Virus record (IMG/VR): IMGVR_UViG_3300041809_000571
Coordinates: 115,841-179,840 of that record
Direction: 5' to 3' (one strand)
Source: a virus
Length of the DNA stretch: 64,000 bases
Shown here: piece after piece, positions 15,540 to 36,797 of the stretch
Position numbering within the stretch: the first letter of the stretch is position 1
Layout of the letters: every line of letters begins with the position of its first letter
Position numbers and translations under genes: made by a program
Notes under the pieces: model-generated
What the model was told of the DNA's origin: nothing
The model's input: the letters and a program-made list of their open reading frames with translations, nothing else
The model's database searches: none

Positions 15540-16169
15540 ATGGCACAAGTGGGCAGCGCAGAATACAAAGCACGTAAACTTCGCCAGCAACAGGAATACC
15601 TCGAACGGCTCAAGGCAAAGAAGGTCAGCCTGTTGGAGCGTGCCGAGGCAATCACGGATACCTCCAAAGACCAGCGCATCTATGTCGTGGTCGCTGACAC
15701 CGTGCAGAACTCCATCGGGCTGGACTTGGCGGATGGGCATGAAATCCTGTTCCGGGACCGTGACGCCAAAACCATCACTCAGGCCCCCGGTCGGCTCATG
15801 GCGCAGGTCGGTCATGTGACCAGCTACACCCGGCTGATGATGGCGAAAAGGTGTTTCATGGAGACTATCAGTGGTCCCTATGACCGGGATTATCTTGAGA
15901 AGGTTTGGGCAACCCTCGCCAAACCCATCACCACCATTGTGCTTGGGGCGAAAGACAGCTTCGAGCTTCACCATGTTTACCGGCTCTTGGAGAAAAAGCT
16001 GAACGGGCGGGCATATGCCTTCTACGACGACAACCCCCCGGTGTACGGCAATGAGCGGAAAATCATGACCGCTATCGCCACGGAGCCGATTCCCTTTACC
16101 ACCACAGAGGGGGTGCTGGATTACCTACCACTGTGGGCGGTAACTGAGAGCCGTATGAACAGGGGGTGA
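15540..16169 (+). CDS. Hypothetical protein, possible PTH2-like peptidyl-tRNA hydrolase fold
   Basis: Weak match to PTH2 signature (IYVVVADTV ... GRLMAQVGHV versus VVVRTDL ... GKIAAQCSHA); tentative. Confidence 0.4.
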   Translation: MAQVGSAEYKARKLRQQQEYLERLKAKKVSLLERAEAITDTSKDQRIYVVVADTVQNSIGLDLADGHEILFRDRDAKTITQAPGRLMAQVGHVTSYTRLMMAKRCFMETISGPYDRDYLEKVWATLAKPITTIVLGAKDSFELHHVYRLLEKKLNGRAYAFYDDNPPVYGNERKIMTAIATEPIPFTTTEGVLDYLPLWAVTESRMNRG

Positions 16170-16375
16170 GTACAGCAATGCCCAATCTACGCATCGTTCT
16201 GGATGAATGGGATATCCAACAGCTTCTCGCAGGCAAGCCGGTCAGCTTGTCTGGAGAAGCCCGACCGAACGATATATATCTTGACGTGGACCACATTCAC
16301 TTGGAGAGGGTGAAGTCCACGATTGAAGCTCTCATCAAAAAGCAAAAGGAGCAGGAGCAAGCAGAGGGAGGCTGA
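16166..16375 (+). CDS. Hypothetical small protein
   Basis: 69-aa ORF; ATGA overlap. Confidence 0.4.
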   Translation: MSTAMPNLRIVLDEWDIQQLLAGKPVSLSGEARPNDIYLDVDHIHLERVKSTIEALIKKQKEQEQAEGG

Positions 16376-16376
16376 T

Positions 16377-16646
16377 ATGGCAACCACAAGACAAGTGCTG
16401 GCCTACATCAAACAGAGCGACAAGGACGCCAAAGACGGCGGTCGGAGACGCTTAACCGCCCCCAAGGGCAAATTCCGGGTCATCGGCGTGGACACCTTCG
16501 AGGGTCCCCGTGCGGACTACCTCATTGACGACTTTAAGAGTCTCCATGCCGCTATTGCGTCCGCCCGGAGCCACGCCGGGAACATGAACCCCTGCTACGT
16601 CTACGACGACGAAGGGAGTAGCATGTGGAGCGGGGGAAGCGTATGA
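16377..16646 (+). CDS. Hypothetical protein
   Basis: Start at ATG 16377 after GAGGGAGG. Confidence 0.45.
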   Translation: MATTRQVLAYIKQSDKDAKDGGRRRLTAPKGKFRVIGVDTFEGPRADYLIDDFKSLHAAIASARSHAGNMNPCYVYDDEGSSMWSGGSV

Positions 16647-16864
16647 GCAAGCTCAAGGAAGCTCGCCAGAAAGCCTTCGAGAAATGGATGGACATCCTGT
16701 ATAAGGAATACGGGGTGGACATGGTGACGGAGAAAGGCCCCGAGTTTTACGAGGGGATTTTCAATGCCGGATGGCGGGCTGGTCGGCGTTACAAGAAGCA
16801 CAAGAGGCGTCTCCCATGGGGAGGCTACAAATATAGTGGAGACAGTAAAGGAAACTGCATATGA
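16643..16864 (+). CDS. Hypothetical basic protein
   Basis: ATGA-coupled start at 16643. Confidence 0.45.
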   Translation: MSKLKEARQKAFEKWMDILYKEYGVDMVTEKGPEFYEGIFNAGWRAGRRYKKHKRRLPWGGYKYSGDSKGNCI

Positions 16865-17094
16865 AACTACCATGGAAATGCCCGGCCTGCGGAACGGTTC
16901 ACGTGCATCCCACTGATGGGTGCCGACACTGCAACCGTCCGACTGAGGAACCCGACCCGATTTTCAGTCTCGGCCCCCCAACCGGTGAGCACAAACTTAC
17001 AATGCGGGTAGCAAAATGTCGAACCCCACAGGAGGGATGTGATGTTCTTTTTTTCACGCATAGCCGGGGCTTTCAAACGGTGGAAGAGAAATAA
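16861..17094 (+). CDS. Zn-ribbon protein
   Basis: CPACG ... CRHCN. Confidence 0.45.
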   Translation: MKLPWKCPACGTVHVHPTDGCRHCNRPTEEPDPIFSLGPPTGEHKLTMRVAKCRTPQEGCDVLFFTHSRGFQTVEEK

Positions 17095-17374
17095 GTCCTT
17101 CATGGAAGGCGGCACGCTGTTCATGGGGACGCCGGGCGGGGAGATGGTCAACATGGGAACCATCACCGACTTTAAGATGACTATGAAAGAACCGAGTGAT
17201 GAACAGCGGGTTCGTGAGAGCCTTGCAGAAGGCAAATGCCCCGACTGCGGCAGCATGAAATTCCTCCCCGGTCCCTGCGGCGGGGGAAGTCAGAATTATA
17301 TGTGCGCTGAATGTGGGCACCGTTTCAACATCGCCGCTATGGGCGACACTTTGATTCTCGCTGAACGCATCTAG
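17039..17374 (+). CDS. Zn-ribbon protein
   Basis: CPDCG ... CAECGH. Confidence 0.45.
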   Translation: MMFFFSRIAGAFKRWKRNKSFMEGGTLFMGTPGGEMVNMGTITDFKMTMKEPSDEQRVRESLAEGKCPDCGSMKFLPGPCGGGSQNYMCAECGHRFNIAAMGDTLILAERI

Positions 17375-17382
17375 GAGACGCT

Positions 17383-17832
17383 ATGCAAGATGCTGCCATC
17401 CCTATGAGTGGGAGAATATGGTCTACCCGTGGTGGTAAAGGCCACTACATTGAACTTGAAGGCCGGGACCCACAGGTTATAATAGCGGAGGAAAACAAAA
17501 TGCGGGATGCCGAACTAGCCCAAACCGTTTACGACTTGTTACAGCCGTGGGAAAAAGCGGTCCATGCCGAAAGCCTCAAGGCAAAGGCTAACCTTGAAGG
17601 GGAGATTGCCGCCCACGCCTCATGGGAACGAGATAACGAACGAGATGGTGACCCGTTCAGCCGTAACCCCTATGATGATGAAGACCGGCTGAGAAAGATT
17701 GCCGAGGAAAAGGCAGCGGCGGCAGAGAGAGCCAAGGACACCTTACAGTTTGTGGTGGAGACTTTTCTATCCAAGATTCCAGACCGAAAAGAGGCAACCC
17801 ATGTTGAAGACGCTAATTTACGGAAACCGTAA
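17383..17832 (+). CDS. Hypothetical acidic protein
   Basis: 149-aa ORF. Confidence 0.5.
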   Translation: MQDAAIPMSGRIWSTRGGKGHYIELEGRDPQVIIAEENKMRDAELAQTVYDLLQPWEKAVHAESLKAKANLEGEIAAHASWERDNERDGDPFSRNPYDDEDRLRKIAEEKAAAAERAKDTLQFVVETFLSKIPDRKEATHVEDANLRKP

Positions 17833-18694: not shown

Positions 18695-18700
18695 GGAACT

Positions 18701-19684
18701 ATGTGCTTTGATGAGCCGCTCCTAACTCGTGATGAGTTCCGGGAATCAGTGTTTGCCCGTGATGGGTACAAGTGTGTCGTGTGCGGGTCAAGGGAGAATG
18801 GCCTTGACGCCCACCATATCATCGACCGCAAACTCTTCTACAATGGAGGCTACTACCTCAGCAACGGTGTATCCCTGTGCTCTGATTGTCACATCAAAGC
18901 GGAAGACCCCAATGCCATCCGAGAATTCCTACCCTTCGCTCTCCGGGAGCGGGCGGGCATCAAGGAAATCATCCTACCAGACAAGCTGGACGCCAAGTGC
19001 GGAAACAACTACGACAAGTGGGGCAACTACATTTCCACCCTCATGGTGAAGTATCCCCACACGCCCCACGTGCTATGGTCGCCGGGGTACGACGCACAGG
19101 AAGATATGGTGCTGACCACCACTGACCACTGGGCGGGCAAGGAGGTAGTCATCACCGAAAAGATGGACGGTGAGGGCACCACCATGTATCAGGACAACTA
19201 CCATGCCCGGTCCTGCACGTATAAGCCGCATGTCAGCCGCAGCCGGGCGAGAGCAATATGGGGCCGCATCCGGTATGATATCCCCTTCGGCTGGCGCATT
19301 TGCGGGGAGAACGTCGCCGCCGAGCACAGCATCTCCTATGACAACCTGCCGGGGTACTTCATGGTATTCTCCATCTGGCAGGAGTTTGACGTGTGCCTTT
19401 CTTGGGACCAGACAGAAATTTGGTGCGGTCTTTTAGAGTTGCCCACCGTTCCAGTATTATGGAGAGGGACGTGGGACGAAGCCAAGTGCCGGGACATCAT
19501 CGACCACCTTGACTTGAAAAAGCAGGAAGGCATCGTCATCCGCCCGGCAGATGAATTCCGGCTGGACCAGATAGCCGACCCGGTCAACGGAGTCATGGGA
19601 AAGTGGGTCCGCAGGGGCCACGTTACCACCGACGAGCACTGGATGGATAAGCCAGTAGTTTGGAACAAACTAAAGGGGGAATAA
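18701..19684 (+). CDS. HNH nuclease fused to ATP-dependent RNA/DNA-ligase-like nucleotidyltransferase domain
   Basis: N-terminal HNH (CVVCGS ... DAHHIIDR ... NGVSLCSDCH); C-terminal ligase motifs I (EKMDGEG), IV (EGIVIRP) and V (GKWVRRGH). Confidence 0.6.
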   Translation: MCFDEPLLTRDEFRESVFARDGYKCVVCGSRENGLDAHHIIDRKLFYNGGYYLSNGVSLCSDCHIKAEDPNAIREFLPFALRERAGIKEIILPDKLDAKCGNNYDKWGNYISTLMVKYPHTPHVLWSPGYDAQEDMVLTTTDHWAGKEVVITEKMDGEGTTMYQDNYHARSCTYKPHVSRSRARAIWGRIRYDIPFGWRICGENVAAEHSISYDNLPGYFMVFSIWQEFDVCLSWDQTEIWCGLLELPTVPVLWRGTWDEAKCRDIIDHLDLKKQEGIVIRPADEFRLDQIADPVNGVMGKWVRRGHVTTDEHWMDKPVVWNKLKGE

Positions 19685-21266: not shown

Positions 21267-21803
21267 ATGAAAAAGTTTGGCAGACTCTACATTGACATTG
21301 ATGATACCATATTCGGCAAATATCGCCGGGACAGTTTCCTCGAATTGCGCCCCGGCATCATCGGTCAATTGCGGGTCCTCGCCAAGCTATTCGATTGTTA
21401 CTGGCTCACCTGCTGGCCTTGGGATAACCCACCACATCACATGGACGTACAAACTCTCCTCCAAGTGCTTTATGCCCATGACCTCGTAAAAGACATCAAC
21501 TACATGCGCTGGAAGCTCGCTGACCCGGACGGAAAAGCTGGGGCAGTGTTGGACCCCACTCAGCCGCAGGACTTTTGGTGGTTGGAAGACAAGCTCGATA
21601 GAGAGGAATTGGCCGCTTTGGAACGGGCGGGTAAGCTTGACCGTTACATTGAAGTCGATTCTGTTGGTCCGTGGAAGTTTGCCGATGCCTGCTTGGAGCT
21701 TTTCAAGCGCACCGAAATCAACCACGAAAACCTCATGAAAGCTGGAGGAAGTTTCAAGGTATTCCGCAAAGAAGACTTCCTCACCCCGGTCATAGTCACA
21801 TGA
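21267..21803 (+). CDS. HAD-superfamily hydrolase/phosphatase-like protein
   Basis: Motif I LYIDIDDTIF (hhhDxDxT) at the N-terminus. Confidence 0.5.
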   Translation: MKKFGRLYIDIDDTIFGKYRRDSFLELRPGIIGQLRVLAKLFDCYWLTCWPWDNPPHHMDVQTLLQVLYAHDLVKDINYMRWKLADPDGKAGAVLDPTQPQDFWWLEDKLDREELAALERAGKLDRYIEVDSVGPWKFADACLELFKRTEINHENLMKAGGSFKVFRKEDFLTPVIVT

Positions 21804-22867: not shown

Positions 22868-25800
22868 ATGCCAACTCCCCTAACAGGAACGAACGTTGCA
22901 GCGCCGATAGTCCCCTTCACGGACGGAGACATTTTTCCGACCCATGAGGCGTTGTACGGTTTGGGCGGTTGGCGGGAAGTGGCTGACTACACCACCCGAG
23001 ATGCTATTCCTGTTGCCCGGCAAGAAGTCGGTATGGTGGTCTACGTTCTCTCTGACCAAACCTACTGGCAATTGCAGGTAGTTGGCAGCCCACCCACCTA
23101 TAGCCAACTTATCATGGGAAGCGCCGGGGCGACCGGCCCGACCGGATACACAGGTTACACGGGACCCGGAAATTTTACAGGCTATACCGGATACAGTGGT
23201 TCACCGGGTCTGACTTACGCCTTAACTCCCCCCACGATTGTTCAGACAGCTACTACCAGTGTTGACGGTGTGGGAGGATACACCTGCACCCTCGCTGCCA
23301 GCCCGACCGCAGGAAACGTCCTCCTCATCATGCTATTGGGTCGCTACTATCCTCTCGGCAGCACTGAGACGCTTCCTCCGGGATTCTCCACGGCTTATGC
23401 CCCTACACCGCTTAATGGTGGAGGATACAGTGCCATAGGTATGGTTGGATACCACCCGGTATCGCCGGGAGACGGCAAAGTGTGGACCGGAACGTGGACA
23501 GGCTCTTACGCCCAAATGGCGGTGATGTTCGAGCTTTCCAACGCTGGGCTTTTCGAGTGTCAGTTTGGCATTGCTACGGCAGCGGGAGTTATTGACAACA
23601 CCATCCTCACCATGGGAACCGTGAACATTCCCTTTGGAGCGGCGGTGTTCGCCCAAAGCCTTGTTGCCAAAAGTGGTGACGCTGATTACTATGTCGGCTC
23701 TTCCCCTAGCTTCTACAATCAAGGAGCAGGTAACCCACCCCTGACGTTCGGCCCCGGTGGGTTCATGAACCTCTCCGATATGGGCGGATGCTTGTACGGC
23801 GTGGGAAGCATTGTTCCTAACGCCGCCATAACCCAGACCATCAATCAGGCGTACACCAACAATGAGTACCTCATCGTCGTGGTGCCTGCGGTCATTGGTG
23901 GAGTGGGTGCAACCGGGTACACAGGCCCCGGCAACTTCACAGGATATACAGGACCGAGCGGTTACACGGGGCCAACCGGTTATCCCGGCTCGGCAATGAG
24001 TACCGGAGCAACTGGATATTCGGGGTACACTGGTTACACTGGTCCGGGAATAACTGGCTACACCGGCCCCGGAAATTTCACAGGATTTACGGGCTACACG
24101 GGATTCACGGGATACACGGGTCTCCCCGGCTCCGCCACGAATACCGGTGCGACTGGGTACACGGGTTACACTGGTCCCAATATAACCGGTTACACCGGCC
24201 CGACCGGGCCGGGTAATTTCACGGGATACACGGGCTACACGGGACCTAACATAACCGGCTACACAGGTCCAACCGGTTACACCGGGCCGGGAAATTTCAC
24301 AGGTTATACTGGACGAACTGGTTATACCGGGTACACCGGAATCCCCGGCTCTGCAACAGCTACGGGAGCCACTGGACCCATTGGTCCCACGGGTTATACG
24401 GGTTATGTCGGTTACACCGGACCCACCGGGCCGGGTAATTTCACAGGATATACGGGATACACGGGACAAGGAATGACCGGTGCGACCGGATATACCGGAC
24501 CGGGTAATTTCACAGGTTATACAGGACCGGGGAACTTCACTGGCTCAACCGGCTACACTGGACCCAGCATAACTGGTTACACAGGTTATACAGGCCCCGG
24601 AAATTTCACGGGTTATACGGGGTACACGGGATACACAGGACCTAATATCACGGGATATACCGGCCCAACCGGGCCGGGTAATTTCACCGGTTACTCTGGG
24701 TACACCGGTTACACTGGACCTAATAGCACAGGTTGGACAGGCTACACTGGACCCGGTAATTTCACTGGGTTTACTGGTTATACAGGTTACACCGGTCCAC
24801 ATATCACGGGATACACCGGCCCGACCGGGCCGGGTAATTTCACGGGCTTCACCGGATACACAGGACCACAAATAACCGGACCCACAGGACCCGGAAACTT
24901 TACGGGATATACCGGATACACGGGAGACACGGGTTGGACTGGTTATGTCGGCTACAGCGGACCCACTGGTTACACCGGGCCGGGGAACTTCACTGGCTTT
25001 ACGGGCTACACAGGTCCTAGTTACTCCGGGTGGACTGGTTACACAGGATATACCGGTCCGGGTAATTTCACAGGATTCACCGGTTACACGGGTTATACAG
25101 GGCCTAACATCACAGGCTACACGGGACCAACCGGACCCGGTAATTTCACAGGTTATACCGGTCCGACAGGTCACACGGGTTACTCTGGTTACACCGGCCC
25201 TACCGGTCCGGGTAATTTCACAGGATTCACCGGATATTCTGGATATACAGGATTTAGCGGTTACACTGGACCCACGGGACCGGGGAACTTCACTGGCTTT
25301 ACGGGCTACACCGGTTACACTGGTCCACAGGTTACCGGCTACACGGGACCGACCGGACCCGGAAATTTCACAGGTTATACCGGCTATACTGGCTACGGAA
25401 GCACCGGTTACACCGGATACACAGGTCGAACTGGCTACACAGGTCCTACTGGTTTTACCGGCTACACAGGAAATGCTCCTGCCTTAGCCTTCGGTGAGTT
25501 GACCTTCGACAACAACAGCACTCCCACTACGATGACCTTGCAGAGCACGTGGTACCAAATCACGGGAATGCTGCTGGGGAACTACAACGGTGGAGTGACG
25601 CCGGTCGGAGGAGCTACCTCCAACTTCACCATGAATACGGGTGGAGAATATCAGACTGCCATGAGCATGTCCCTATTCCCCTCCGCCACAGGGCATACCT
25701 TTCTGTTTGGTGTCTTTCACAACGGCGTTCTTATCACTGACCACACGGCGGAAATACAACTAGCCGACACCGATACGGTCGTTATTGGTATCACGGGTAT

Positions 25801-27466
25801 TGAAAACTTTACGGCGGGAGACACGGCTGACCTTCGGGTACAGTGTCTTGATGCAGCAGGACAGAGCATCACTCCCGTCTACATGAACTTCAACGTGTAC
25901 GCCGTGGGAGGAGTGGGACCAAGCGGATATACAGGTTACACTGGATATAGCGGATTTACGGGACCGACTGGTCCCGGCAACTTTACAGGTTACACAGGTT
26001 ATACGGGAGCGACGGGTTTCACTGGGCCTACAGGACCCGGAAACTTCACTGGGTTTACAGGCTACACGGGGTTCTCAGGTTACACGGGAAACACTGGTCC
26101 TACCGGCCCCGGAAATTTCACAGGCTTCACGGGTTATTCGGGTTACAGCGGTCCAACCGGATATACTGGTCCAACCGGGCCGGGGAATTTCACTGGTTAC
26201 ACGGGGTACACAGGTTACTCTGGTTATACCGGTAACACTGGATATACCGGACCCGGTAATTTCACAGGTTACACAGGTTACTCAGGATACACGGGTCCCA
26301 CGGGATTTACGGGTTTCACGGGTCCCGGCAATTTTACCGGCTACACCGGTTACACCGGTTACATAGGAACTACTGGTTACACCGGATATACCGGCCCCGG
26401 AAACTTTACGGGTTACACAGGTTATACCGGATATACAGGAACTACTGGCTATACGGGCTACACTGGACCCGGAGCGTTCACCGGCTACACTGGATATACA
26501 GGCTATACCGGATATACGGGGTATGGCAGTACGGGGATGACCGGCTACACCGGATACACCGGATATACTGGAACTGGAGGAACCGGCTACACCGGTTACA
26601 CGGGACCAAGCGGTGGCCCTATCGGCCCCACGGGATACACGGGGCCAATGGGCGGAGACCAAGTCGATGTCAATGGCAGCCAAGTCATCACCGCCGCAGC
26701 ATTCACCGGCTACAGCGGTCCAACTGGGTACACGGGGTATGGTGCCACAGGTTATACGGGGCCGGGAAATTTCACGGGGTATACGGGTTACACAGGACTA
26801 GCTGGGGTGGGGTCGTTCACCCTCACCGAGAATGGGGTCACGGTCAGCACCTCCGCCGCCAATTTCAGCAACACCACCCCTGCCGCACCGGCAGGTGGGA
26901 CCAATGTCAAGTGGCAGAACGATAGCTCCACCCCGCCTAATGTGTCTGCCTATATGCCTAGTAGCCTTTACCTGCTTGAGCAGCATACTGCCTCAAGCTC
27001 AGCCTCCTTAGCATTCACGAACTGGTATTCCTCTTCCTTTGATGAGTATGTTGTTGAGTTTAAAGAGTTTATACCATCTACTGGGAGCCCTTATCTTGTC
27101 ATCCAACTTGGTGGAGATTCAACATCTGGTCATTATTTCTGGAGTTGGGTTTATAACGGTACTTCTGGGGCTGGTGCTCCCGGCACGCAGGACCAGACAG
27201 CCTTAAGCTATAGCTCAGGGATTGTCATCAACAACAACGGTAGCACTACACTACCGATAAGCGGCACGCTAAAGCTTTTCAATCCAGCCGGTACAACATA
27301 CCCTAAAGTAGTAATGCTGACCTCAGCATCTTTAGTCAGCAGACTAGTAACAAACAGTGGGGGAGGGTACTGGAACTCCACATCCGCCTACACTGCATTC
27401 TCTATATTGTTCTCCAGTGGCAATATCGCTACGGGAACGGCCCGTTGCTATGGAGTAGGACACTAA
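22868..27466 (+). CDS. Giant collagen-like tail fibre protein (1532 aa)
   Basis: Two long Gly-X-Y blocks dominated by GYT/GPT triplets and the recurring GPGNFTG unit, separated by a globular beta-domain; the C-terminal domain begins with the [10 protein letters not shown] module. Confidence 0.85.
23903..25478 (+). repeat. Tandem nucleotide repeats encoding collagen-like block 1 ([24 protein letters not shown] units of about 26 aa / 78 nt)
   Basis: Repeated ggttacaccggcccgaccgggccgggtaatttcac(a/g)gg(a/t)tacacggg units visible in the sequence. Confidence 0.8.
25919..26800 (+). repeat. Tandem nucleotide repeats encoding collagen-like block 2
   Basis: Same unit family as block 1. Confidence 0.8.
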
Positions 27467-28209
27467 TGGCAAACGCAATCAATCTAAACAACACCACCCC
27501 TGCGGCACCAGCCGGAGGCAAAAACGTCATCTGGCAGAACGACGGGTTGACTCCGCCCAATGTATCGGCATATGTACCCGGCATGATATTCAACGTGGAT
27601 ACTCCACCCGCCAGTCCCAGTGCTTACGACGACGAGTTCAACTCCACGACCTTGAATGCCAAGTGGACGCAGACGACCAGCGCCCTCTCCTCATACAGTA
27701 TCGGCACACAGGTTCCCGGCTGTATCTACTGCAACATGACGGTGCCCGGTTACTACAATATCAGCCAGCCGTTTCCCGTGTCCTCCGGTGTAGCCACGGA
27801 TGTCACGGTGAAGTGCTACATTCGGCCTTATGCAAACTATCAGTTCATCTACCTGAAGCTGACCGACAACCTAACACCCTCAAACGGTATCGGGACCGCC
27901 ATCTCTTATGTGAATGCCGTGGTTTGGGACTGGAGTTGGTGGTCGGGCGGGAGCAACAACCAGAACTTCCCGGCAGTGCCGTACTCAGGCGGGACATGGT
28001 ACCTGCACCTGCAAAAGACCGCAGCCAATGTATGGTCAGCCTATGGTAGTGATGACGGGATAAGCTGGATTGTGTTGAGCAGCAACATCAACTCTGGTTA
28101 CAACCCAACTATCAATTATCTAACCCTGACAATGGAGCAGGACTCAACTTCCAGTCGCATACAGATGGCGGTTGACTGGGTGCGCTGCAACTGGCTGGTG
28201 ATACCGTAG
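27466..28209 (+). CDS. Tail fibre tip/alternative receptor-binding protein
   Basis: N-terminal [33 protein letters not shown] module shared with the fibre C-terminal domain and with the next gene; TAATG overlap. Confidence 0.65.
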   Translation: MANAINLNNTTPAAPAGGKNVIWQNDGLTPPNVSAYVPGMIFNVDTPPASPSAYDDEFNSTTLNAKWTQTTSALSSYSIGTQVPGCIYCNMTVPGYYNISQPFPVSSGVATDVTVKCYIRPYANYQFIYLKLTDNLTPSNGIGTAISYVNAVVWDWSWWSGGSNNQNFPAVPYSGGTWYLHLQKTAANVWSAYGSDDGISWIVLSSNINSGYNPTINYLTLTMEQDSTSSRIQMAVDWVRCNWLVIP

Positions 28210-28219
28210 GAGAATATCT

Positions 28220-29017
28220 ATGCCGATGAATCTCAACAACACGACTCCCGTCGCTCCCGCTGGCAACACTAACGTCTCGTGGCAGAAAGACGGCAGCGGA
28301 AATGTATCTGCCTATGTCTCTGCCTCTGGTAGTGCGTCTTCCGGGTTACGTTCGGCGCTTCCCGGTTCACCCACAACGGGACAAGTCTACTACTGCACTG
28401 ATGCCCCGTGGGTCTATGAATATAATGGGTCGAAATGGGTAGCCTACTGGAGGGGGGCTCCCGCCGACGACCCGTCGCTGCTGACTGCGACTCCCGTGCA
28501 GTATTATCCGAATACCTCTGCTCACTCTGCCACTACCTCCTTGGGAGGGGTTAGCCTCAATGGAACCTCCACGGGTCCCGACACTTGCTACTATTACTGC
28601 TGGCCGGTAACAGCGTCCACAACCCTGAAAGTCAGCTTGGGGCTGACAGGGGGCGGCGGATGCGCCGTCATCAACACCAATACCAATGCCGGGATGCTGT
28701 TCAGGTTTACGGACTACCATACCATGTACTACACACAGTACAACCTAACCACCAGTTATGTCGCTAACCAATCAAACTTTACCACGGGTGGTGCATGGCC
28801 CGAAGGCTACTGGGGGCTGACGTTCGGCTCGAACTCGTGGGCGCTGAACTGTTTTGTAGACCCCAACATGACTACTAATGCGTGGGGCGGAGCGTTTGCC
28901 TTATCGGGAACTTTAGCCTATGTGGGGACAAACTTCACCCATATAGGGTTTGGGGCAAGTTCCACTGGGGCTATAGGTCCCTCTTGGCTCTGGCATTGGA
29001 GGCAGGTGAGTGCATAG
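28220..29017 (+). CDS. Tail fibre tip/alternative receptor-binding protein
   Basis: N-terminal NLNNTTPVAPAGNTNVSWQKDGSGNVSAYVS module; RBS GGAG. Confidence 0.65.
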   Translation: MPMNLNNTTPVAPAGNTNVSWQKDGSGNVSAYVSASGSASSGLRSALPGSPTTGQVYYCTDAPWVYEYNGSKWVAYWRGAPADDPSLLTATPVQYYPNTSAHSATTSLGGVSLNGTSTGPDTCYYYCWPVTASTTLKVSLGLTGGGGCAVINTNTNAGMLFRFTDYHTMYYTQYNLTTSYVANQSNFTTGGAWPEGYWGLTFGSNSWALNCFVDPNMTTNAWGGAFALSGTLAYVGTNFTHIGFGASSTGAIGPSWLWHWRQVSA

Positions 29018-29043
29018 GGACTTTTTGGGCAATCCCCAGATAA

Positions 29044-29059
29044 CCCAGTATTATTCCAT
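29044..29059 (+). promoter_or_regulatory. CCCAGTATTATTC-N3-ATG element
   Basis: Identical 13-mer to the 2850 copy. Confidence 0.45.
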
Positions 29060-29824
29060 ATGAGACCACAGCTTTCAGAAATCCTCATCAAGGTACTGAA
29101 TCCCCAAGGCACCTCCGAGGCCGGACAAATCATCCACCTTGCCCTCCTTCGTTATTGTGACTCCAAACGCAAGTGGCAAAACACTGAATACCTATGGCTG
29201 GGGATACAGGAGCACAAACGTCTGACCGGGATATACCCCGTCCGTGATGCCATGGCGGCATGGCTCTATCATGCCGCTGAAACCAACGATGAGGAGATGG
29301 GAGCAGTGGCCTTCCTCCGGGACAGCCAAAGACTGGGCTTTACTTTCGATGAGGCTGAGAATTACGTCATTCCCCTCATCATGCAATCCCGCCCCTCTCG
29401 AACAAGCGCTTCGGTGGTAGGGGATATGCGCATCGCCATATTGGGACAGAACCGGGTGAAGTACCTTGCTTACTCTCGAAAACTCCAGCAATCATGGAAA
29501 TTTCTCGGTCCCCACCAATGGGAACAGGGGAGAATAGCCGCCCTCAAAGAGTTGCTATCCCGGCCCCGGCTATATTTCCGGGAAGAGTTCGAGTCCAAAA
29601 TGGCCGGAATCGCCAAGGAGAACATGCAAGCGGAGCTTTCATTACTCGGCTACATTCCTCCTCCTGCTAAAGAACCGGAACCGGTGGAAGTACCCGCTCC
29701 CCTCGTAGTGCCCATAAGAATAATGAGCATGGAGGAGATAGTTAAAAAGCAAGAGGAAGCTAAGGCGGCTATGGGTATGACCGGTCCTACCGGTCCAGCC
29801 GGGCCTCCTCCAGCGGCGGAATAA
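29060..29824 (+). CDS. Hypothetical protein (possible fibre assembly/accessory protein)
   Basis: Preceded by CCCAGTATTATTC plus 3 nt; C-terminus has a short GMTGPTGPAGPP collagen-like bit. Confidence 0.55.
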   Translation: MRPQLSEILIKVLNPQGTSEAGQIIHLALLRYCDSKRKWQNTEYLWLGIQEHKRLTGIYPVRDAMAAWLYHAAETNDEEMGAVAFLRDSQRLGFTFDEAENYVIPLIMQSRPSRTSASVVGDMRIAILGQNRVKYLAYSRKLQQSWKFLGPHQWEQGRIAALKELLSRPRLYFREEFESKMAGIAKENMQAELSLLGYIPPPAKEPEPVEVPAPLVVPIRIMSMEEIVKKQEEAKAAMGMTGPTGPAGPPPAAE

Positions 29825-29896
29825 TTTCCATGAAACTCAGTATCTATACTTGTCGGGATAGGACGAAAGCACCCGGCATCTCTGCCGCAAGTCAAA

Positions 29897-29940
29897 CGGG
29901 GTGCGTTTCAGTACGGACGCACCCCGTGCGCATTTTGCGC
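29897..29940 (+). terminator. Probable intrinsic terminator after the fibre module
   Basis: 10-bp GC-rich stem CGGGGTGCGT / ACGCACCCCG with 10-nt loop, followed by GCGCATTTTGCGC. Confidence 0.5.
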
Positions 29941-30019
29941 ATCAAATAGGAAACGAGCTACGGAACTCATCATGTAATGAGGAACCGGAAATTACCCTGA
30001 TGCTTAGACGAGAGAAGCA

Positions 30020-31039
30020 GTGCCAAGAATGCCTAAAAAGCAGTGCAAACGGCTTGACCCTAACATCAAGAGCGAGGCTGAGGAAGAACTTGCCAGCAGC
30101 CTAAAGCATCTTATCGTCGGACAGACACGGGCAATTGAGGTACTCGTAGACGCATACGAAACCTTCCGTGCTGGTTTAGCCCCGCCTGACCATCCTGTCG
30201 GAAATCTAATATTCCTCGGTCCCACCGGTTGCGGGAAGACCTACGTCATTGAAGTAATGGCGGAGCTTCTCTTCGGTACAAAAAAAGCCCTCAAAAAGGT
30301 GGACTGCGCCGAGTTCCAACATTCTCACGACATTGCCAAACTGGTGGGTTCCCCACCCGGATACTTGGGACATCGGGATACACCAGCCTACTTACGTCAG
30401 GAAAGTCTGGATGCCCACCATACCAAGGAATTGGCATTGACACTTTTACTCTTTGATGAGTTTGAGAAGTCTAACGATGCCCTGTGGAACTTGTTACTTG
30501 GAATACTTGACAAAGGTACACTTACCTTGGGTGACAACAAGCAAAGCACCTTCGATAAATGCCTCATCATCATGACGGGAAATCTCGGTTCCCGAGAAAT
30601 GCAATATCTCGCCCGAGGTGGACTGGGATTCGCCGGGTCTTCCACAAAGAGCAGTGAGGCATTCAACAAAGAGGTGGAAACGGCAGGACTAGAAGCCGCC
30701 AAAAAACGCTTCACCCCGGAGTTCCTCAACCGCATAGATGAGATAGTGGTGTTTCACTCCTTGGATGAGAAGCAACTCAAACAGGTGGTGGAATTGGAAA
30801 TCGAACAGGTGCAGAGCCGGGTGTTAAAGATGCGAGACCCCCGGCAGTTCGTCTTGGAATTCACCCCCGCCGCCAAAGACTTGCTGATAGCCCAAGGAAC
30901 GGACTTAAAGAACGGGGCACGTCCTCTCAAACGGATAATGGAGAAGCTGGTAGTAAAGCGGCTTTCCCGTTTTCTTAACACCAAACAAGTCAACATGGGG
31001 GGACCTCATCGTAGTGGACAAAGACAACGAAGACCTTAG
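30020..31039 (+). CDS. ClpA/ClpB D2-type AAA+ ATPase (stand-alone)
   Basis: LIVGQTRAIEVLVDAYETFRAGLAPPDHPVGNLIFLGPTGCGKTYV matches the ClpB D2 sensor and Walker A region; Walker B LLLFDEFEKS; C-terminal VVFHSLDEKQLKQVVELEI; GTG 30020 or ATG 30029 start. Confidence 0.7.
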   Translation: MPRMPKKQCKRLDPNIKSEAEEELASSLKHLIVGQTRAIEVLVDAYETFRAGLAPPDHPVGNLIFLGPTGCGKTYVIEVMAELLFGTKKALKKVDCAEFQHSHDIAKLVGSPPGYLGHRDTPAYLRQESLDAHHTKELALTLLLFDEFEKSNDALWNLLLGILDKGTLTLGDNKQSTFDKCLIIMTGNLGSREMQYLARGGLGFAGSSTKSSEAFNKEVETAGLEAAKKRFTPEFLNRIDEIVVFHSLDEKQLKQVVELEIEQVQSRVLKMRDPRQFVLEFTPAAKDLLIAQGTDLKNGARPLKRIMEKLVVKRLSRFLNTKQVNMGGPHRSGQRQRRP

Positions 31040-31119
31040 TTTCACCCGTGTTGCCGAGGGCGTACTGGTCGCCGAAGCCCCTGCCAGCTAAATATTCACC
31101 CCCTTTATAGAGGTGTGCT

Positions 31120-31494
31120 ATGTTTGGATGGGCAAAAAAGCTAGGGGCTTATGGAAAGAACCTCTTTGAGCGCTGTCTCAAAGAGCCTGATGTCAACAGC
31201 CGGGTGGTGTTCCTTGGGACCTTCATCATCACCTCGGCGTTGATGGTTGGGCATTTCGTCGTCTACGCTGTGGGATTCCTGCACGGCAAACCCATCGACC
31301 CCGCTTATCCTACCGTCCTCGGTGTCCTCGGAGCCGGGCATGGTGTCAACGGTCTCGCCCGCTTCTTCACCAAGAAGAACGGTGGAGACGGTAATGGGAA
31401 TGGTGACAACGGGAACGGAAATCCGCCTGCACCAGACCCTCCTGCACCGCCTGCACCGGGCCTACCGCAGCCGGGCGCACCTGTGGCTAATTAA
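31120..31494 (+). CDS. Membrane protein with Gly/Asn/Pro-rich C-terminal tail
   Basis: Two hydrophobic helices followed by GDGNGNGDNGNGNPPAPDPPAPPAPG. Confidence 0.5.
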   Translation: MFGWAKKLGAYGKNLFERCLKEPDVNSRVVFLGTFIITSALMVGHFVVYAVGFLHGKPIDPAYPTVLGVLGAGHGVNGLARFFTKKNGGDGNGNGDNGNGNPPAPDPPAPPAPGLPQPGAPVAN

Positions 31495-32131
31495 CCACAT
31501 ATGATGATTGTTTCTTCTGCGTGGCGTGAGCTTCCGGCGATGGACCACTTTGAGTGACTCCATTGGAAGCCACGGCGGTCACATAGTAGTAATAGGTAAC
31601 CCCGCCCACAAGCTGTTTGATATCCACATAAAACAAGGCATTGACCGGAGTAGAGTTGAGCGGGGTAGCGCTCTCTTTTCCTGCTGCCGTTCCCCTGTAC
31701 ACGTAATACCCAACCACCCCCGGAGTCGGAGAAGCGGGCCAGACAAGGACAATATCATGGATACCCGTGCCACTCACCGGCACCCGCAGAGGACTATTGG
31801 GAGCAGTGCTGGTGACCACCAGCGAGGCGGTTCTCACCCCGGCATCTGACGGCGCTATCTCCACGTTTACGGTGCATTGGGCACCCGGACCCAGCCCCGT
31901 ACCACAAGTGTTGGATTGGTAGAAATTTGGGGCATAGGGGCCGGTGAAAGTTACGCTGGATATGGTGATAGAGGACGTGGAGGTGTTGGTCAGTGTAACG
32001 GTCAGCGGGTTGCTGGCTACTGCGTCCGGCTGATTCCCGAAGGAGAGCGAGGTGGGGGAAGCGGTCATCTGTGCCCACCCACTCAAGGATAGAGCGAAAA
32101 ACAAAACCGCCAACATCAACAGACGTTTCAT
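31487..32131 (-). CDS. Secreted Ig-like/fibronectin-III-like protein
   Basis: Signal peptide MKRLLMLAVLFFALSLSGWAQ; beta-sandwich-type sequence with an FN3-like VVGYYVYRG ... YYYYVTAV segment. Confidence 0.6.
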   Translation of the reverse strand: MKRLLMLAVLFFALSLSGWAQMTASPTSLSFGNQPDAVASNPLTVTLTNTSTSSITISSVTFTGPYAPNFYQSNTCGTGLGPGAQCTVNVEIAPSDAGVRTASLVVTSTAPNSPLRVPVSGTGIHDIVLVWPASPTPGVVGYYVYRGTAAGKESATPLNSTPVNALFYVDIKQLVGGVTYYYYVTAVASNGVTQSGPSPEAHATQKKQSSYVVN

Positions 32132-33670
32132 TTACACCCCCACCAGAGTCAGCATGAGATTAGCCAGCGTGGCATCCGCCGTTGCCGGGCCGAGAACCAT
32201 AAGCACATCGTTGGGATTGAAGTTCACAGCAGAGGAGGAGAATGTCCCTACCGTGCCGCCAGCCGGGAAAGTGCAGGTGCCGAACTGATTGCCATTCTGG
32301 TAGAAGGTCAGTACCGCACTTGCCGTTGCTGCCGCCTGCGCCAGAGCCACGGAGCCAACCATGTTGGCAGGCATGGAGAACGTATTGGCAAAGGCGTACA
32401 GTAGGAGAGTCTGCAACCCCGCCAGCACGCCCAGAGCGAAGACAGCAAGGGGCGGCTTAGCTCCCAATCCGGGTGCTCCAGTGTACCCGGTATAGCCGGT
32501 CATCCCCGGACCCGTGGGGCCGACAGGGCCGCTCGGGCCGGTATAACCCTGACCAGAGGGTCCGGTGGGTCCACTCGGTCCTCCGGGGCCTGTGTACCCT
32601 GTGAAGGAAAGCCCGGCCTGTCCTCCCGGCCCGGTGTACCCAGTGAAGCCTTGCGGCCCTGTGTATCCGGTAAAGGCGGGACCAGTCGGACCCGTTGGAC
32701 CGGTATCACCTGTTCCCGTATACCCCGTGTCACCCGTGTACCCTGAGTAAGAAGGACCGGTGGGACCTTGGGGGCCAGTTGGGCCGGTAAAGGTGGAACC
32801 AGTCGGACCAGTGTACCCTGTATCACCCGTGTAACTACTCGGACCAGTGTACCCAAGACCAGTCGGACCGGTTGGACCAGTCGGGCCTGTGTACCCCGTG
32901 AAAGCAAAGCCGGTGTAGCCGGTGTACCCGGTGTTAGCCGGTCCGGTTGGGCCGGTTGCACCGACGCCGGGCAAGGGTCCCCATGGAGACAGGTAACCAT
33001 AGACATTGCTGATATCCGCCGCCGACAAGGCGTAGGAATAGACCCGCACATCATCCATCAACCCGGAGAAGGGAAAGGCAGGGGCGTTGTTGCTCCGGGA
33101 GCCGAGTGCTTTCTGCATTCCACTTGGAACGAAAGTGAAGGACTTACTGAAAGCGTTACTGACCGGCTGACCGTTCACATAGAAAGTGTGTGAGCCGCCG
33201 TTGTTTACATAGGCTACGTGAGTCCATTTGCCAGCGGGGATGACGCCGCCGACTGACCACGCTGCAAACACACCGGGGTAGTAGACCTCCAGTCCACCGC
33301 CGCCCGGAACTTGGGTGGAGATTCCTAGAACCACGGAGTTGATGCCACTGACATAATTGGTGCCAAACAATGTTTGCCGGACGCCGGGCGTCGGCGTTTG
33401 AATCCACATGGCGATGGTGAAGTTTGCGGTGAGAGCCGAATTGAGACTTCCCGCCGCCGAACCGGAAAGAGGCAGGAAGGTGGTCTTACCGTCAAAACAC
33501 CCCGCCCATGGTCCAACCTTCCCCCCGGAGTAGTAGCCGCTGATGCCCGCCGCTGCGCCCGTCCAGTTGCTCATCTGACCGCTGGAAGAGTCATAAGCAG
33601 CCGGACCAGTCCCCTCATCAAAAGCCCACCACCCAACAAGATTGTTGGTCATATTGATATCGTTTGGCAT
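32132..33670 (-). CDS. LamG/concanavalin-like lectin domain fused to a collagen-like region (fibre/adhesin)
   Basis: N-terminal [12 protein letters not shown] ... [17 protein letters not shown] (LamG-type); central Gly-X-Y run ([30 protein letters not shown] ...); hydrophobic C-terminal domain. Confidence 0.7.
32455..32965 (-). repeat. Collagen-like Gly-X-Y repeat-encoding region
   Basis: Repetitive ggtcc/ggacc-rich triplet periodicity. Confidence 0.7.
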
Positions 33671-34216: not shown

Positions 34217-34230
34217 AATAACCCATATTT

Positions 34231-34263: not shown

Positions 34264-34266
34264 AAC

Positions 34267-34731: not shown

Positions 34732-34867
34732 TCTTTCTGCTCTTGGGAGTCTGGTGGAGCAAACAGGGTTGGTTTAACCTGTTGCTCAAGCTCAGCTTCT
34801 TTGGGCTGTGGGTTGCCAACGGGCTGGTTGCTTTGAACCTGCTCGGATACATCGTGAAGAGGTAAAC

Positions 34868-35383
34868 ATGGAAAGCGTAATGACTGTCGTTAAGGCTCAC
34901 CGCCTCGCCAAAGAATGGCATGGCGAGCAAATGTATGGGGACAAACCCTATATCCACCACTGTGAGATGGTGGTCCGGGTCCTCGAAATGTTTGAATGGG
35001 GGGACGACATGGAGTTGCTCTCCGCCGCCCTCCTGCATGATACCATGGAGGATGCCCGCATCACTCACGCCAAACTGATGGACGAATTCTCCGAATCCAT
35101 CGCCGACCTCGTACAACTCGTCACCGACAAACAGGGACGTAATCGCCGGGAGCGCCACGAGCGCACCTACCCCCTTATCCGAGGCAACAAGAGGGCGACC
35201 GCCCTCAAGCTCGCCGACCGGATTGCCAACGTCATCCAGTGCCGTCTGTACAGCAACGAGGGGTTGCTGGCGATGTACCAAAAAGAGCACAATGACTTCA
35301 AGGCGATGCTTATCGACCCGGCAATTAGTTGTGCCAAGCTCGATATGATGTGGAATTACCTCAACAACTTGCTGGCGGAATAA
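34868..35383 (+). CDS. HD-domain phosphohydrolase with SpoT/Mesh1-type (p)ppGpp hydrolase signature
   Basis: AHRLAKEWHGEQMYGDKPYIHHCEMV ... LSAALLHDTMEDA resembles the RelA/SpoT HD signature AHxGQxRxxGxPYIxH ... AALLHDxxED. Confidence 0.6.
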   Translation: MESVMTVVKAHRLAKEWHGEQMYGDKPYIHHCEMVVRVLEMFEWGDDMELLSAALLHDTMEDARITHAKLMDEFSESIADLVQLVTDKQGRNRRERHERTYPLIRGNKRATALKLADRIANVIQCRLYSNEGLLAMYQKEHNDFKAMLIDPAISCAKLDMMWNYLNNLLAE

Positions 35384-35398
35384 TCCTGCTGATTTTGT

Positions 35399-35427
35399 CC
35401 TCGGCGTGGTATACTGTAATTGAGGGG
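35399..35427 (+). promoter_or_regulatory. Extended -10 promoter box (GTGGTATACT) followed by GAGGGG; CCTC upstream
   Basis: Motif copy upstream of the CCA-adding enzyme gene. Confidence 0.45.
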
Positions 35428-35432
35428 GATAC

Positions 35433-36797
35433 ATGACTCCGAAGGAAGCGGCTGTCGAAGTTCTCAAGACCCTGTACAAGAATAATTACCGCTCTTACCT
35501 CGTGGGTGGATGCGTGCGAGACCTTATCCTTGGGCGTGAGCCAAAGGATTATGACATCACCACCGAGGCCCTCCCCGAGCAGGTAGAAGCCGTTTTCCCC
35601 AAGACTGTTGCCGTGGGCAAGTCCTTTGGTGTCATCACCGTGGTTATGGGTGACGTGAACATCGAAGTGGCAACCTTCCGTTCAGATGGCGCTTACAGCG
35701 ACAACCGCCGACCTGACTCCGTGACCTTCACTCCTTCCGCTGCCGACGACGTAAAGCGCCGGGACTTCACCATGAACGGCTTGCTCTGCGTGGGTGAAGC
35801 CGACACTTCCAGCGTAGCCAACTACGAGACTTCGCTTGCCGGGTCGAATGTCCATTACACCGTGCAGGAAGGCGAGTCCCCGGACGGCGAATCTCACACC
35901 TATGGAATAATGGATTTCGTCGGCGGCATGGACGATATCAAGGAGCGGAAGATTCGTTGTATCGGCGACCCCAACGAACGCTTCAAGGAAGATGCCCTGC
36001 GGATGCTGCGGGCCTGCCGGTTCGCCGCTCAGTTACGATTTCACATTGATGATGACACCCTCTTGGCTATTCAGGAGAATGCCGCTCTTATCACCAAGGT
36101 TTCGGTGGAGCGTATCGCCGTGGAACTCGTCAAGATTCTGACCAGTCCCCACCCGGTCAACGGGTTGGTGCCCTTGGTCACCACCGGTCTTATGGAGCAC
36201 CTGCCTTTTAGTGAGGCAATCAAGAAGGGTCTTGCTTACATCCTGCGCCGGTTTGGTAAGTTCCAGACTAAGGATGCTAATTTGGCACTGGCAATGTTCT
36301 TCGCCCACACTGACCCTACCATGGTTCGGGTGGATTACCTATTGAAGAAGGTTCTCAAGCTGTCCAATGACCACGTTAACGCCGCAGCCGGGGCGCTGGA
36401 CACCCTTTACGACATGCTCTTCGCCGGTCTTTTCAATCTCAAGCACGCTCAGCACCGGCTCAAGAAGATGATGCGGAATCCGGGTGCTATGCTCGGCGTT
36501 GAACTGTTGGAGCAGAACCTTGCGTTGAACTTTCCACCCTTCCCTGATGGAGACGTGAAGGATTTCCACAGTCTCATCGAATACCTGCGGGCATTGACCC
36601 CGGAAGAAATCAACCCTCCCAAGTTTGTGACTGGCGAGGATTTGATGGCGATGGGAATGGAGCCTTGCCGGGAAATGGGCAATATCCTTGACGATGTTGA
36701 GGATATGCAGCTTAATGGGGAACTGCGGGACCGGACTCATGCCCTCCTCGTGGCGGAGCGTTATGTCTCCGACTTCAAGAACGGAGTCCTGCGATGA
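35433..36797 (+). CDS. tRNA nucleotidyltransferase (CCA-adding enzyme / polyA polymerase head-domain family)
   Basis: LVGGCVRDLILGREPKDYDITT ... GKSFGVITVV ... EVATFRSD is the class II head-domain signature; TGGTATACT box upstream. Confidence 0.8.
   Translation: MTPKEAAVEVLKTLYKNNYRSYLVGGCVRDLILGREPKDYDITTEALPEQVEAVFPKTVAVGKSFGVITVVMGDVNIEVATFRSDGAYSDNRRPDSVTFTPSAADDVKRRDFTMNGLLCVGEADTSSVANYETSLAGSNVHYTVQEGESPDGESHTYGIMDFVGGMDDIKERKIRCIGDPNERFKEDALRMLRACRFAAQLRFHIDDDTLLAIQENAALITKVSVERIAVELVKILTSPHPVNGLVPLVTTGLMEHLPFSEAIKKGLAYILRRFGKFQTKDANLALAMFFAHTDPTMVRVDYLLKKVLKLSNDHVNAAAGALDTLYDMLFAGLFNLKHAQHRLKKMMRNPGAMLGVELLEQNLALNFPPFPDGDVKDFHSLIEYLRALTPEEINPPKFVTGEDLMAMGMEPCREMGNILDDVEDMQLNGELRDRTHALLVAERYVSDFKNGVLR

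Follow-up and report, generated by a model that had tools for sequence, protein, structure and literature searches.

Five Candidate Genes of the Known Jumbo-Phage RNA-Repair, Translation-Rescue and Counter-Signalling Repertoire in a 64-kb Metagenomic Phage Sequence

Introduction

In this report, we describe five genes within a 64,000-nucleotide (nt) stretch of viral DNA (IMG/VR record IMGVR_UViG_3300041809_000571, positions 115,841 to 179,840; hereafter the window), which encode a PTH2-like protein, an HNH nuclease fused to an ATP-dependent RNA-ligase domain, a HAD-superfamily phosphatase-like protein, a stand-alone SpoT/Mesh1-type HD hydrolase (small alarmone hydrolase, SAH) and a CCA-adding tRNA nucleotidyltransferase. 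On balance, we favor the reading that a jumbo phage carries here five separate genes drawn from the known RNA-repair, translation-rescue and counter-signalling repertoire, with activities predicted from their sequences. The five genes are a thematic set and not one operon or obligate pathway.

CCA-adding enzymes, PTH2 proteins, HD-alarmone phosphodiesterases, HAD phosphatases and cREC domains have all been described in group 2/3 jumbo phages (Iyer, Anantharaman, Krishnan, Burroughs and Aravind, 2021; Viruses 13:63, PMC7824862), and the gene set reported here is a sound sequence reading that rediscovers this published theme. It adds divergent members to families that are already seen as a jumbo-phage answer to tRNA-targeting and alarmone-based defences, namely a PTH2-like clade with a Lys-to-Arg replacement, an unclassified family of capless HAD proteins, and a CCA enzyme with a lineage-specific insertion. 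The PTH2-like and HAD families currently escape naming, which gives their description a practical value for annotation.

Genome Setting and Identification of the Five Genes

The window belongs to a metagenomic contig of 364,142 bp (ena:ERZ27249816:k141_1180871). Given the length of this contig, the jumbo or huge metagenomic phages that are its nearest relatives, and the presence of giant polyvalent proteins, the source is a jumbo phage with a genome of at least 364 kb. Exact copies of the CCA enzyme occur on this contig and on peat or soil-type JGI contigs. A megablast search of the 21-kb region against 50,697 deposited phage records returned zero matches, and the weak relatives found at the protein level are jumbo phages: an uncultured 485-kb phage, Salicola SCTP-2, Ralstonia RsoM2USA, Caulobacter CcrSC and CcrBL9, Acinetobacter ME3, and Tunturiibacter Tunturi_5.

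The five open reading frames (ORFs; Table 1) lie inside a long co-directional (rightward) array of non-structural and accessory genes. Because homologues were found for each of them, and because the ratio of nonsynonymous to synonymous divergence (dN/dS) of the ligase gene against its orthologue is as low as 0.09, they are real coding sequences. The first-pass annotation of this DNA had placed all five exactly where they are found, on the plus strand, and its domain guesses hold in every case: profiles, PDB match and motifs concur for the CCA-adding nucleotidyltransferase, profile and PDB matches agree for the stand-alone SpoT-type HD hydrolase, the HAD-type DxDxT phosphatase-like identity is borne out by homologue profiles, AlphaFold and fold search, and the possible PTH2-like identity by homologues that match PF01981 and by a predicted model with the Pth2 fold. 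Direct profile matches were obtained for the HNH and PF09414 ligase domains, the SAH and the CCA enzyme. The PTH2-like and HAD proteins received no name from the Pfam, PHROG or NCBIfam models searched, and since PDB sequence and profile searches were insignificant for both, structure prediction was needed in addition to profiles built from their homologues.

Table 1. Positions of the five genes and of other annotated features in the window
Feature	Position	Strand	Length and basis
PTH2-like protein	15540..16169	+	209 aa; homologue profiles, AlphaFold, Foldseek
HNH nuclease fused to minimal ATP-dependent RNA-ligase nucleotidyltransferase domain	18701..19684	+	327 aa; Pfam, PHROG
Small capless HAD-superfamily phosphatase-like protein	21267..21803	+	178 aa
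Stand-alone SpoT/Mesh1-type HD hydrolase (small alarmone hydrolase, SAH)	34868..35383	+	171 aa; HD_4, TIGR00691, phrog_990
Class II CCA-adding tRNA nucleotidyltransferase	35433..36797	+	454 aa; Pfam, NCBIfam, PDB profile
cREC_REC (cyclic-phosphate-processing receiver)	56295..56615	-	PF20274 3e-18, aa 1141-1247 of 1436-aa polyvalent protein (55725-60035)
Radical-SAM protein	1840-2820	-	
Bacterial sugar transferase (Bac_transf)	8002-8787	+	1e-65
A1S_2505-family phage non-structural protein	37599-38153	+	

The HNH-RNA Ligase Fusion

The ligase part of the fusion protein matches PF09414 RNA_ligase over amino acids (aa) 147-289 (E 1.9e-31; nt ~19043-19675), its HNH part matches PF01844 over aa 25-67 (E 3.7e-6; nt ~18773-18901), and the protein as a whole matches phrog_24030, 'RNA ligase' (E 5e-84). 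The nucleotidyltransferase motifs are K154-x-D156-G157 (motif I), G202-E203, E276-G277 (motif IV) and K301 (motif V); K154, D156, G157, E203, E276, G277 and K301 are invariant in a 30-sequence family alignment and are also conserved across 58 fusions, so that the profile match and the family invariants confirm motifs I, IV and V, whose failure in profile searches had been named as a possible ground for refutation. In the HNH domain, the zinc-site and catalytic residues are C25, C28, H38-H39, N55, C60 and C63-H64, with C25, C28, H38, H39, N55 and C60 at least 90% conserved across the 58 fusions. The protein thus combines a member of the PF09414 superfamily (motifs I, III, IV and V) with an HNH (beta-beta-alpha-Me) nuclease.

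The protein ends about 25-26 aa past motif V, and the C-terminal domain of Rnl2 is absent. The PDB profile matches at E<=1 do not include T4 Rnl2, the fusion protein has no NCBIfam match to TIGR02307, and no T4-like phage is found among the organisms tallied for 34 tblastn matches. Since the Rnl2 C-terminal domain is missing and T4 Rnl2 is not detectably similar, the ligase is placed, as far as sequence can place it, in the PF09414 superfamily and outside Rnl2 sensu stricto (T4 Rnl2 and kinetoplastid REL). The solved sequences nearest to the ligase-domain profile are Naegleria gruberi Rnl5 (5COT) and Aquifex 3QWU, both of them very weak matches (E 9e-5 and 0.02-0.05).

A HMMER scan of 1.84 billion representatives yielded 5070 relatives (332 with E<=1e-30); among the best 150 of these 5070 (50%-identity cluster representatives), 73 have both domains, and the HNH domain is N-terminal in 72. 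In CcrSC and ME3 the fusion is annotated as one coding sequence, and SCTP-2 also carries it. The HNH-Rnl2 fusion reportedly goes back to the 2016 work of Burroughs and Aravind, cited here by way of the survey of Iyer and colleagues. That survey describes HNH-fused Rnl2-family ligases in jumbo phages (Iyer et al., 2021; PMC7824862), and the view of the fusion as an unusual architecture must therefore be abandoned, given that it is present in 73/150 of the best representatives, in many jumbo phages, and in the published record. The protein would self-adenylylate on K154 and seal RNA breaks with 3'-OH and 5'-phosphate ends, and its constrained HNH domain may cut nucleic acid so as to leave such 3'-OH/5'-phosphate ends, or may attack competing DNA, the latter being the role proposed for it by Iyer et al. 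(2021).

An orthologue of the fusion gene lies in the 339-kb relative L001 (14202-15185), with 92% aa and 88.7% nt identity. L001 carries 1.25 kb of extra genes just upstream of the ligase gene, and an ATP-dependent DNA ligase gene stands 1.5 kb downstream of it that is not found at that place in the window.

The PTH2-Like and HAD-Like Proteins

In the PTH2-like protein, a long N-terminal helix (aa 7-38) and a beta-hairpin insertion accompany a Pth2 core (~aa 44-199). PF01981 PTH2 is matched by 23 of its 41 homologues at E<=0.01 (best 3.7e-10), and the profile of the family gave E values of 0.19-0.62, which are not significant, against the Pth2 proteins of the PDB. The AlphaFold model, which was built on the homologue alignment, reached a pLDDT of 92, and Pth2 structures account for all of its top 12 Foldseek matches (prob 1.0, TM(target) 0.64-0.76). 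The conserved residues are G84-R85, Q89, H92, D163, T177 and A178; in the profile alignment, R85 falls on the Lys and D163 on the Asp of Pth2, and both are invariant in the family. Such a protein would act on peptidyl-tRNA, freeing the peptides that stalled or damaged tRNAs still carry. The PTH2-like gene of Tunturi_5 has replication genes as neighbours and stands ~110 kb from the CCA gene.

The HAD-like protein combines a Rossmannoid fold, complete with squiggle and flap, with motifs I (D10-x-D12-x-T14), II (T48), III (K90) and IV (E107-D108), which places it in the HAD superfamily; no significant match came from sequence and profile searches against the PDB. It has no profile match to the RNA-repair families PNK-HAD/PNK3P and HAD_SAK ('Swiss-army-knife'), and no conserved linkage to a polynucleotide kinase or RNA ligase. 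A 50%-identical homologue lies in a bacterial-looking chromosome (JGI 3300025913, 422-kb contig), with genes for a MacB/FtsX transporter, a methyltransferase and a SUKH immunity protein as its neighbours, indicating that the family is not restricted to phages, and another lies in a phage region without a ligase. We considered the protein as the end-healing phosphatase of the ligase and found no support for this assignment, as it falls outside the RNA-repair HAD families and its homologues stand away from ligases. As a capless HAD enzyme, it would dephosphorylate some macromolecular substrate.

The Small Alarmone Hydrolase and the CCA-Adding Enzyme

The SAH matches PF13328 HD_4 (E 1.5e-9) and the N-terminal hydrolase part alone of TIGR00691 spoT_relA (E 3e-17), and its best PDB relatives are Lmo0812, the hydrolase domains of Rel proteins, MESH1 and bacterial SAHs. 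Its start is the ATG at 34868, as in the gene call of the parent contig, and is preceded by the Shine-Dalgarno sequence GAAGAGG. In the family alignment, H18, H31, H57, D58, E61 and D117 are invariant, and conservation is 90% or higher at D62 and N121. With one HD_4 domain, the H...HD...ED...D...N residues and no synthetase domain, the protein is an SAH of SpoT type and neither a dNTP triphosphohydrolase nor a CCA-type HD domain, two identities that had been named as possible grounds for withdrawing the assignment. The motif H-x-x-Q-x-Y-G-(D/E/N)-x-P-Y is shared by the window protein (with D) and most of the 30 members displayed from 46 homologues. In all, 288 phage records contain an SAH-type HD gene. 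The SAH of the window would strip the 3'-pyrophosphate from (p)ppGpp and (p)ppApp, and possibly from tRNA that has been pyrophosphorylated by toxSAS toxins.

The CCA enzyme matches the PolyA_pol head (E 3.8e-33) and the RNA-binding domain (E 4.6e-18), with the CCA-adding enzyme of B. stearothermophilus as its best PDB match (E 1.9e-53, with poly(A) polymerase at 1e-34). It retains intact motifs A, B and D (G25-G-C-V-R-D30, D39-x-D41, R109-R-D111 and E186-D-x-x-R190 are the motif residues), and the protein aligns to 1MIV across head and neck, in keeping with a class II enzyme. Directly after motif B (RRDFTMN) it carries an insertion of ~34-39 aa (aa ~119-157; nt ~35787-35903), which is common only to the close relative L011 and is absent from the Tunturi_5 and Bacillus enzymes. 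The NCBIfam model NF009814 scores the protein at 282.8 bits, ~7 bits short of the cut-off of 290, and this shortfall is probably caused by the insertion, which splits the match. The window enzyme has no HD-motif segment, one of which is present in the Tunturi_5 enzyme (HHPEGD). CCA-type enzymes occur in 166 phage records, and a search of IMG/VR with the CCA protein for related loci gave no confirmed relative. The enzyme would rebuild or complete the 3' ends of tRNAs.

Possible Roles in Counter-Defence or Phage Housekeeping

Published experiments on related SAHs support our reading of the set. The stand-alone SAHs of phages PVP-SE1 and SSU5 neutralise all toxSAS toxins tested, including CapRel (Jimmy et al., 2020; PMC7229694). 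According to Kurata et al. (bioRxiv 10.1101/2021.04.30.441581), tRNA that has been pyrophosphorylated on its 3' CCA end is made competent for aminoacylation again by MESH1 and ATfaRel, a reversal which they compare with T4 Pnk acting as a 3'-phosphatase.

Several observations weigh against our reading of the set. The PTH2-like protein of the window has no match in Pfam (even at E<=10), PHROG or NCBIfam, and in its family an invariant Arg replaces the conserved Lys of Pth2. The SAH clade has, in place of the stretch of Rel and Mesh1 that we take to bind substrate ('Q-x-R-x-S-G-E-P-Y', with a conserved Arg), a stretch that is one residue shorter and lacks this Arg. The score of the CCA enzyme under the NCBIfam equivalog cut-off leaves room for an A-adding or poly(A) activity, and the HAD protein has no link to RNA. 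Furthermore, no tRNA genes occur in the 64-kb window or in three related loci, so that the tRNA context is unseen.

A somewhat unlikely alternative is that the genes serve housekeeping and not counter-defence: the CCA enzyme would mature phage tRNAs that lack an encoded CCA, PTH2 would support heavy phage translation, the SAH would keep the host out of the stringent response, and the ligase and HNH domains would act in nucleic-acid metabolism, for example by sealing nicks at RNA-DNA junctions or degrading host DNA. The wide distribution of CCA enzymes (166 records) and SAHs (288 phage records) across many hosts is consistent with this, as are the solved ligases nearest to ours, 3QWU (a 'DNA ligase') and NgrRnl, which we take to be nick sealers, both matches being weak, and so is the suggestion that the HNH domain attacks DNA (PMC7824862). 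However, the lack of tRNA genes in the 64 kb and in the related loci (most of the genome being unseen) speaks against a tRNA-maturing role, and phage SAHs demonstrably neutralise defence toxins (PMC7229694). Moreover, housekeeping and counter-defence are compatible with each other.

The SAH as a Possible RNA-End Phosphatase

The CCA gene starts 49 nt past the stop codon of the SAH gene on the same strand, and the two genes are also close together in L011, a 53%-identical relative (~700 bp apart), and in L042 (2 kb apart). A scan for terminators and promoters between the two genes found a weak hairpin only, and fewer sites than in shuffled sequences. L042 is the only one of 80 IMG/VR SAH loci with a CCA gene nearby, and L011 the only one of six metagenomic SAH loci. 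We therefore rejected the adjacency as a conserved pair: with 5/6 metagenomic and 79/80 IMG/VR loci lacking a nearby CCA gene, the pairing is lineage-specific, and SAH-CCA proximity is confined to the lineage of the window and one other locus.

The neighbours of SAH genes were surveyed by single tblastn queries within a radius of ~6 kb, with the SAHs clustered at 60% identity. Rnl1 was found near 15 IMG/VR SAH loci and RtcB near three, and two more metagenomic SAH loci have RtcB or Rnl1 nearby; counted by cluster, Rnl1, RtcB or a CCA enzyme is present in a raw count of 8/39. In L085 (IMG/VR 3300013126_000031, 1966-8763), the SAH stands in the middle of a dense nucleic-acid repair block, with an AAA_33 kinase carrying a tRNA-ligase-type CPD, a NUDIX protein and Rnl1 on one side and an ATP-dependent DNA ligase and a PF09414 RNA ligase on the other; in the SAH cluster to which it belongs, Rnl1 lies upstream in 15/25 loci. 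For Pakpunavirus, it has been reported that only a few genes separate a kinase lacking a phosphatase domain from an RNA ligase and an SAH.

This recurrence of the SAH clade beside Rnl1 and RtcB hints at a role as an RNA-end (pyro)phosphatase and is suggestive only. In such a case, the SAH would act mainly on 2'/3' RNA ends, removing from tRNA 3' ends the pyrophosphate added by toxSAS toxins of the CapRel/FaRel2 type, or a terminal phosphate left by a nuclease, and the cleaned end would pass to the adjoining HD-less CCA-adding enzyme, the two forming a tRNA 3'-end repair pair; in other phages, the SAH would partner RNA ligases and serve Rnl1 or RtcB enzymes whose kinase has no phosphatase domain. 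We regard this as unlikely. The same-strand 49-nt spacer and the recurrence of the pairing in L011 and L042, the missing HD-motif segment of the CCA enzyme that its Tunturi_5 counterpart retains, the 8/39 clusters, the composition of the L085 block, and the restoration of 3'-CCA-pyrophosphorylated tRNA by SAHs (Kurata et al.) all point towards it. However, 31/39 SAH clusters have no such neighbour, a CCA gene is near the SAH in just 1/80 IMG/VR loci, nucleotide-metabolism genes of phages tend to cluster anyway, and phage SAHs also neutralise FaRel, a producer of (pp)pApp (PMC7229694). That the whole SAH clade comprises RNA-end (pyro)phosphatases recruited into phage RNA repair, and not mainly alarmone hydrolases, is likewise improbable. 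If true, it would mean that phage 'alarmone hydrolases' are to be reread as tRNA-repair enzymes against toxSAS immunity, and this SAH clade, which recurs beside RNA ligases and stands here beside a CCA enzyme, is the sole part of the set able to change thinking.

The Proposed Single Healing-and-Sealing Pathway, and the Origin of the HNH Domain

The first-pass annotation had proposed that the five products could together heal tRNAs cleaved by host anticodon nucleases or 3'-end-trimming toxins and degrade alarmones. The domains on which this rests stood up, and counter-defence is plausible, if already published for jumbo phages; the single tRNA-healing pathway did not, as nothing ties the genes together. 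PrrC- and RloC-type cuts leave a 5'-OH and a 2',3'-cyclic phosphate, and their repair by an ATP-dependent ligase needs a 5'-kinase, as is known from the biochemistry of T4 Pnkp and Rnl1. The scanned ORFs, which make up nearly all of those in the 64-kb window of a genome of at least 364 kb, yielded no polynucleotide kinase domain. It is decidedly unlikely, in our judgement, that the five products make up one healing-and-sealing pathway for tRNAs cut by PrrC, RloC or 3'-trimming toxins, with the HAD protein as 3'-phosphatase. In its favor are the confirmation of all five folds, the location of the PTH2-like, ligase and HAD genes within 6.3 kb, the recurrence of the PTH2-like/ligase spacing in L001, and a cyclic-phosphate domain, cREC, elsewhere in the window; against it stand the 5'-kinase that was not found in the scanned ORFs and the HAD homologues, which have no ligase in their vicinity and of which one has bacterial-type surroundings. 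Collinearity with L001 extends over the whole block, which means that the shared spacing reflects relatedness. In addition, a tail-fibre-like block separates the ligase/HAD part of the set from its SAH/CCA part, and the PTH2-like and CCA genes of Tunturi_5 are far apart (~110 kb).

Iyer et al. (2021; PMC7824862) tie cREC to RNA ligases. The cREC_REC domain of the window was absent from the concatenated translations of the small ORFs near the ligase gene and was found instead in the 1436-aa polyvalent protein (Table 1); as an RNA-repair-type domain it lies outside the five-gene set, to which it could be assigned tentatively at most.

Comparison of the fusion gene with its L001 orthologue bears on the history of the HNH domain. 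It is the best-conserved gene of its neighbourhood, the flanking genes showing 54-81% aa and 64-81% nt identity. Its dN/dS is 0.046 in the HNH part (at a synonymous divergence, dS, of 0.69) and 0.12 in the ligase part, and the dS of the gene (0.55) compares with 0.78-1.66 in the flanks. From the residue conservation in 58 fusions and the low dN/dS, both domains are, on the sequence evidence, functional and under purifying selection. Recent homing or transfer of the gene was considered and rejected, as its dS is only modestly under that of the flanks and its dN/dS is very low. That the HNH domain is a homing-endonuclease passenger which mobilises the ligase gene, and not a functional partner, is very unlikely: close ligase homologues do occur with and without HNH (P0119, full length, 62% identity; P0120, ligase part only, 67%), the gene stands out in nucleotide identity (88.7%) from its surroundings, the 1.25-kb indel adjoins it in L001 and the window contains free-standing genes of the GIY-YIG/NUMOD3 and endonuclease VII types, but the in-frame N-terminal fusion is retained in 72 diverse representatives, the metal-binding and catalytic HNH residues are at least 90% conserved, the HNH dN/dS of 0.046 at that dS indicates old, constrained divergence and not recent transfer, and the dS of the gene is only modestly below the flanks.

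Other Genes of the Window

Upstream of the set, two ORFs of 836 and 410 aa (9488-13272) have no Pfam match of their own. Their collinear counterparts in L001 are an 808-aa protein (55% identity) and a Phage_T4_rIIB protein (PF26926; 70% identity), and on this basis the two ORFs are probably rIIA- and rIIB-like. Between the HAD and SAH genes lies a tail-fibre-like module (22868-33670) with a 1532-aa collagen-repeat protein, whose repeats are also found in a Laminin_G and collagen protein on the opposite strand. Two ORFs (27445-28209 and 28220-29017) have at their N-termini a copy of aa ~1325-1379 from the C-terminal region of the 1532-aa protein, which gives them the look of alternative fibre cassettes. 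At 30020-31039 there is a ClpB-like AAA+ gene.

Downstream, the minus strand carries a run of giant polyvalent proteins (39410-63753; 1566, 549, 3027, 1436 and 1007 aa), four of which have ART-PolyVal ADP-ribosyltransferase domains; GP88, a GNAT acetyltransferase, NTP_transf_2 and cREC_REC are also represented. A free-standing GIY-YIG and NUMOD3 homing endonuclease gene (44107-44973, minus strand), recognised by Pfam on an identical gene of L007, lies between polyvalent genes, and an Endonuclease_7 match in the window was assigned by elimination only to 60028-60699 (minus strand).

Comparison With Known Systems

Among known systems, the ligase can be set beside the tRNA repair of phage T4 by Pnkp with Rnl1 and Rnl2, which acts against PrrC. 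Both are phage-borne and use an ATP-dependent ligase with the nucleotidyltransferase lysine of KxDG; the window differs in that no kinase was found among its scanned ORFs and in that the Rnl2 C-terminal domain is missing. NgrRnl presumably has an extra module N-terminal to its nucleotidyltransferase domain, as does the window protein, but the similarity to Naegleria Rnl5 (5COT) and 3QWU is very weak, and the N-terminal module is here an HNH nuclease and not OB-like.

Relative to the solved Pth2 proteins (2ZV3, 1XTY and Bit1, 1Q7S), the PTH2-like protein keeps the fold, as judged from the predicted model, and the Asp, His, Gln and Thr-Ala positions, whereas it has Arg for Lys at the G-K position and adds a 38-aa N-terminal helix, a long beta-hairpin and a helical insertion. 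The HAD protein shares its Rossmannoid core, DxDxT motif and minimal cap with the capless phosphatases SCP1/FCP, MDP-1, UBLCP1 and CTDNEP1, but its identity to them is ~12-14% and no family-level profile match connects them. The CCA enzyme resembles the Bacillus-type class II enzyme (1MIV) in head, neck and body (1.9e-53) and in motifs A, B and D; a stretch that we take to be the flexible loop of class II enzymes is also present, and the window enzyme differs by its ~34-39-aa insertion after RRDFTMN.

Like PVP-SE1 PbcSpo, SSU5 PaSpo, MESH1 and ATfaRel, the SAH is a single HD_4 domain of ~170 aa with the HD, ED and D...N motifs, and like the two phage proteins it is phage-encoded and stands alone. 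Its similarity to solved SAHs is ~30-40% or lower, and Q-x-Y-G-D takes the place of the Arg-containing stretch of Rel and Mesh1.

Compared to the complement described for jumbo phages by Iyer et al. (2021; PMC7824862), the window differs in that its HAD protein fits neither of the named HAD families (PNK-HAD and SAK), its PTH2-like protein has diverged beyond the reach of the Pfam model, and its cREC domain lies in a polyvalent protein and not beside the ligase. The parts themselves are the same, the Rnl2-family ligase with its N-terminal HNH domain included, and are dispersed in genomes of more than 200 kb.

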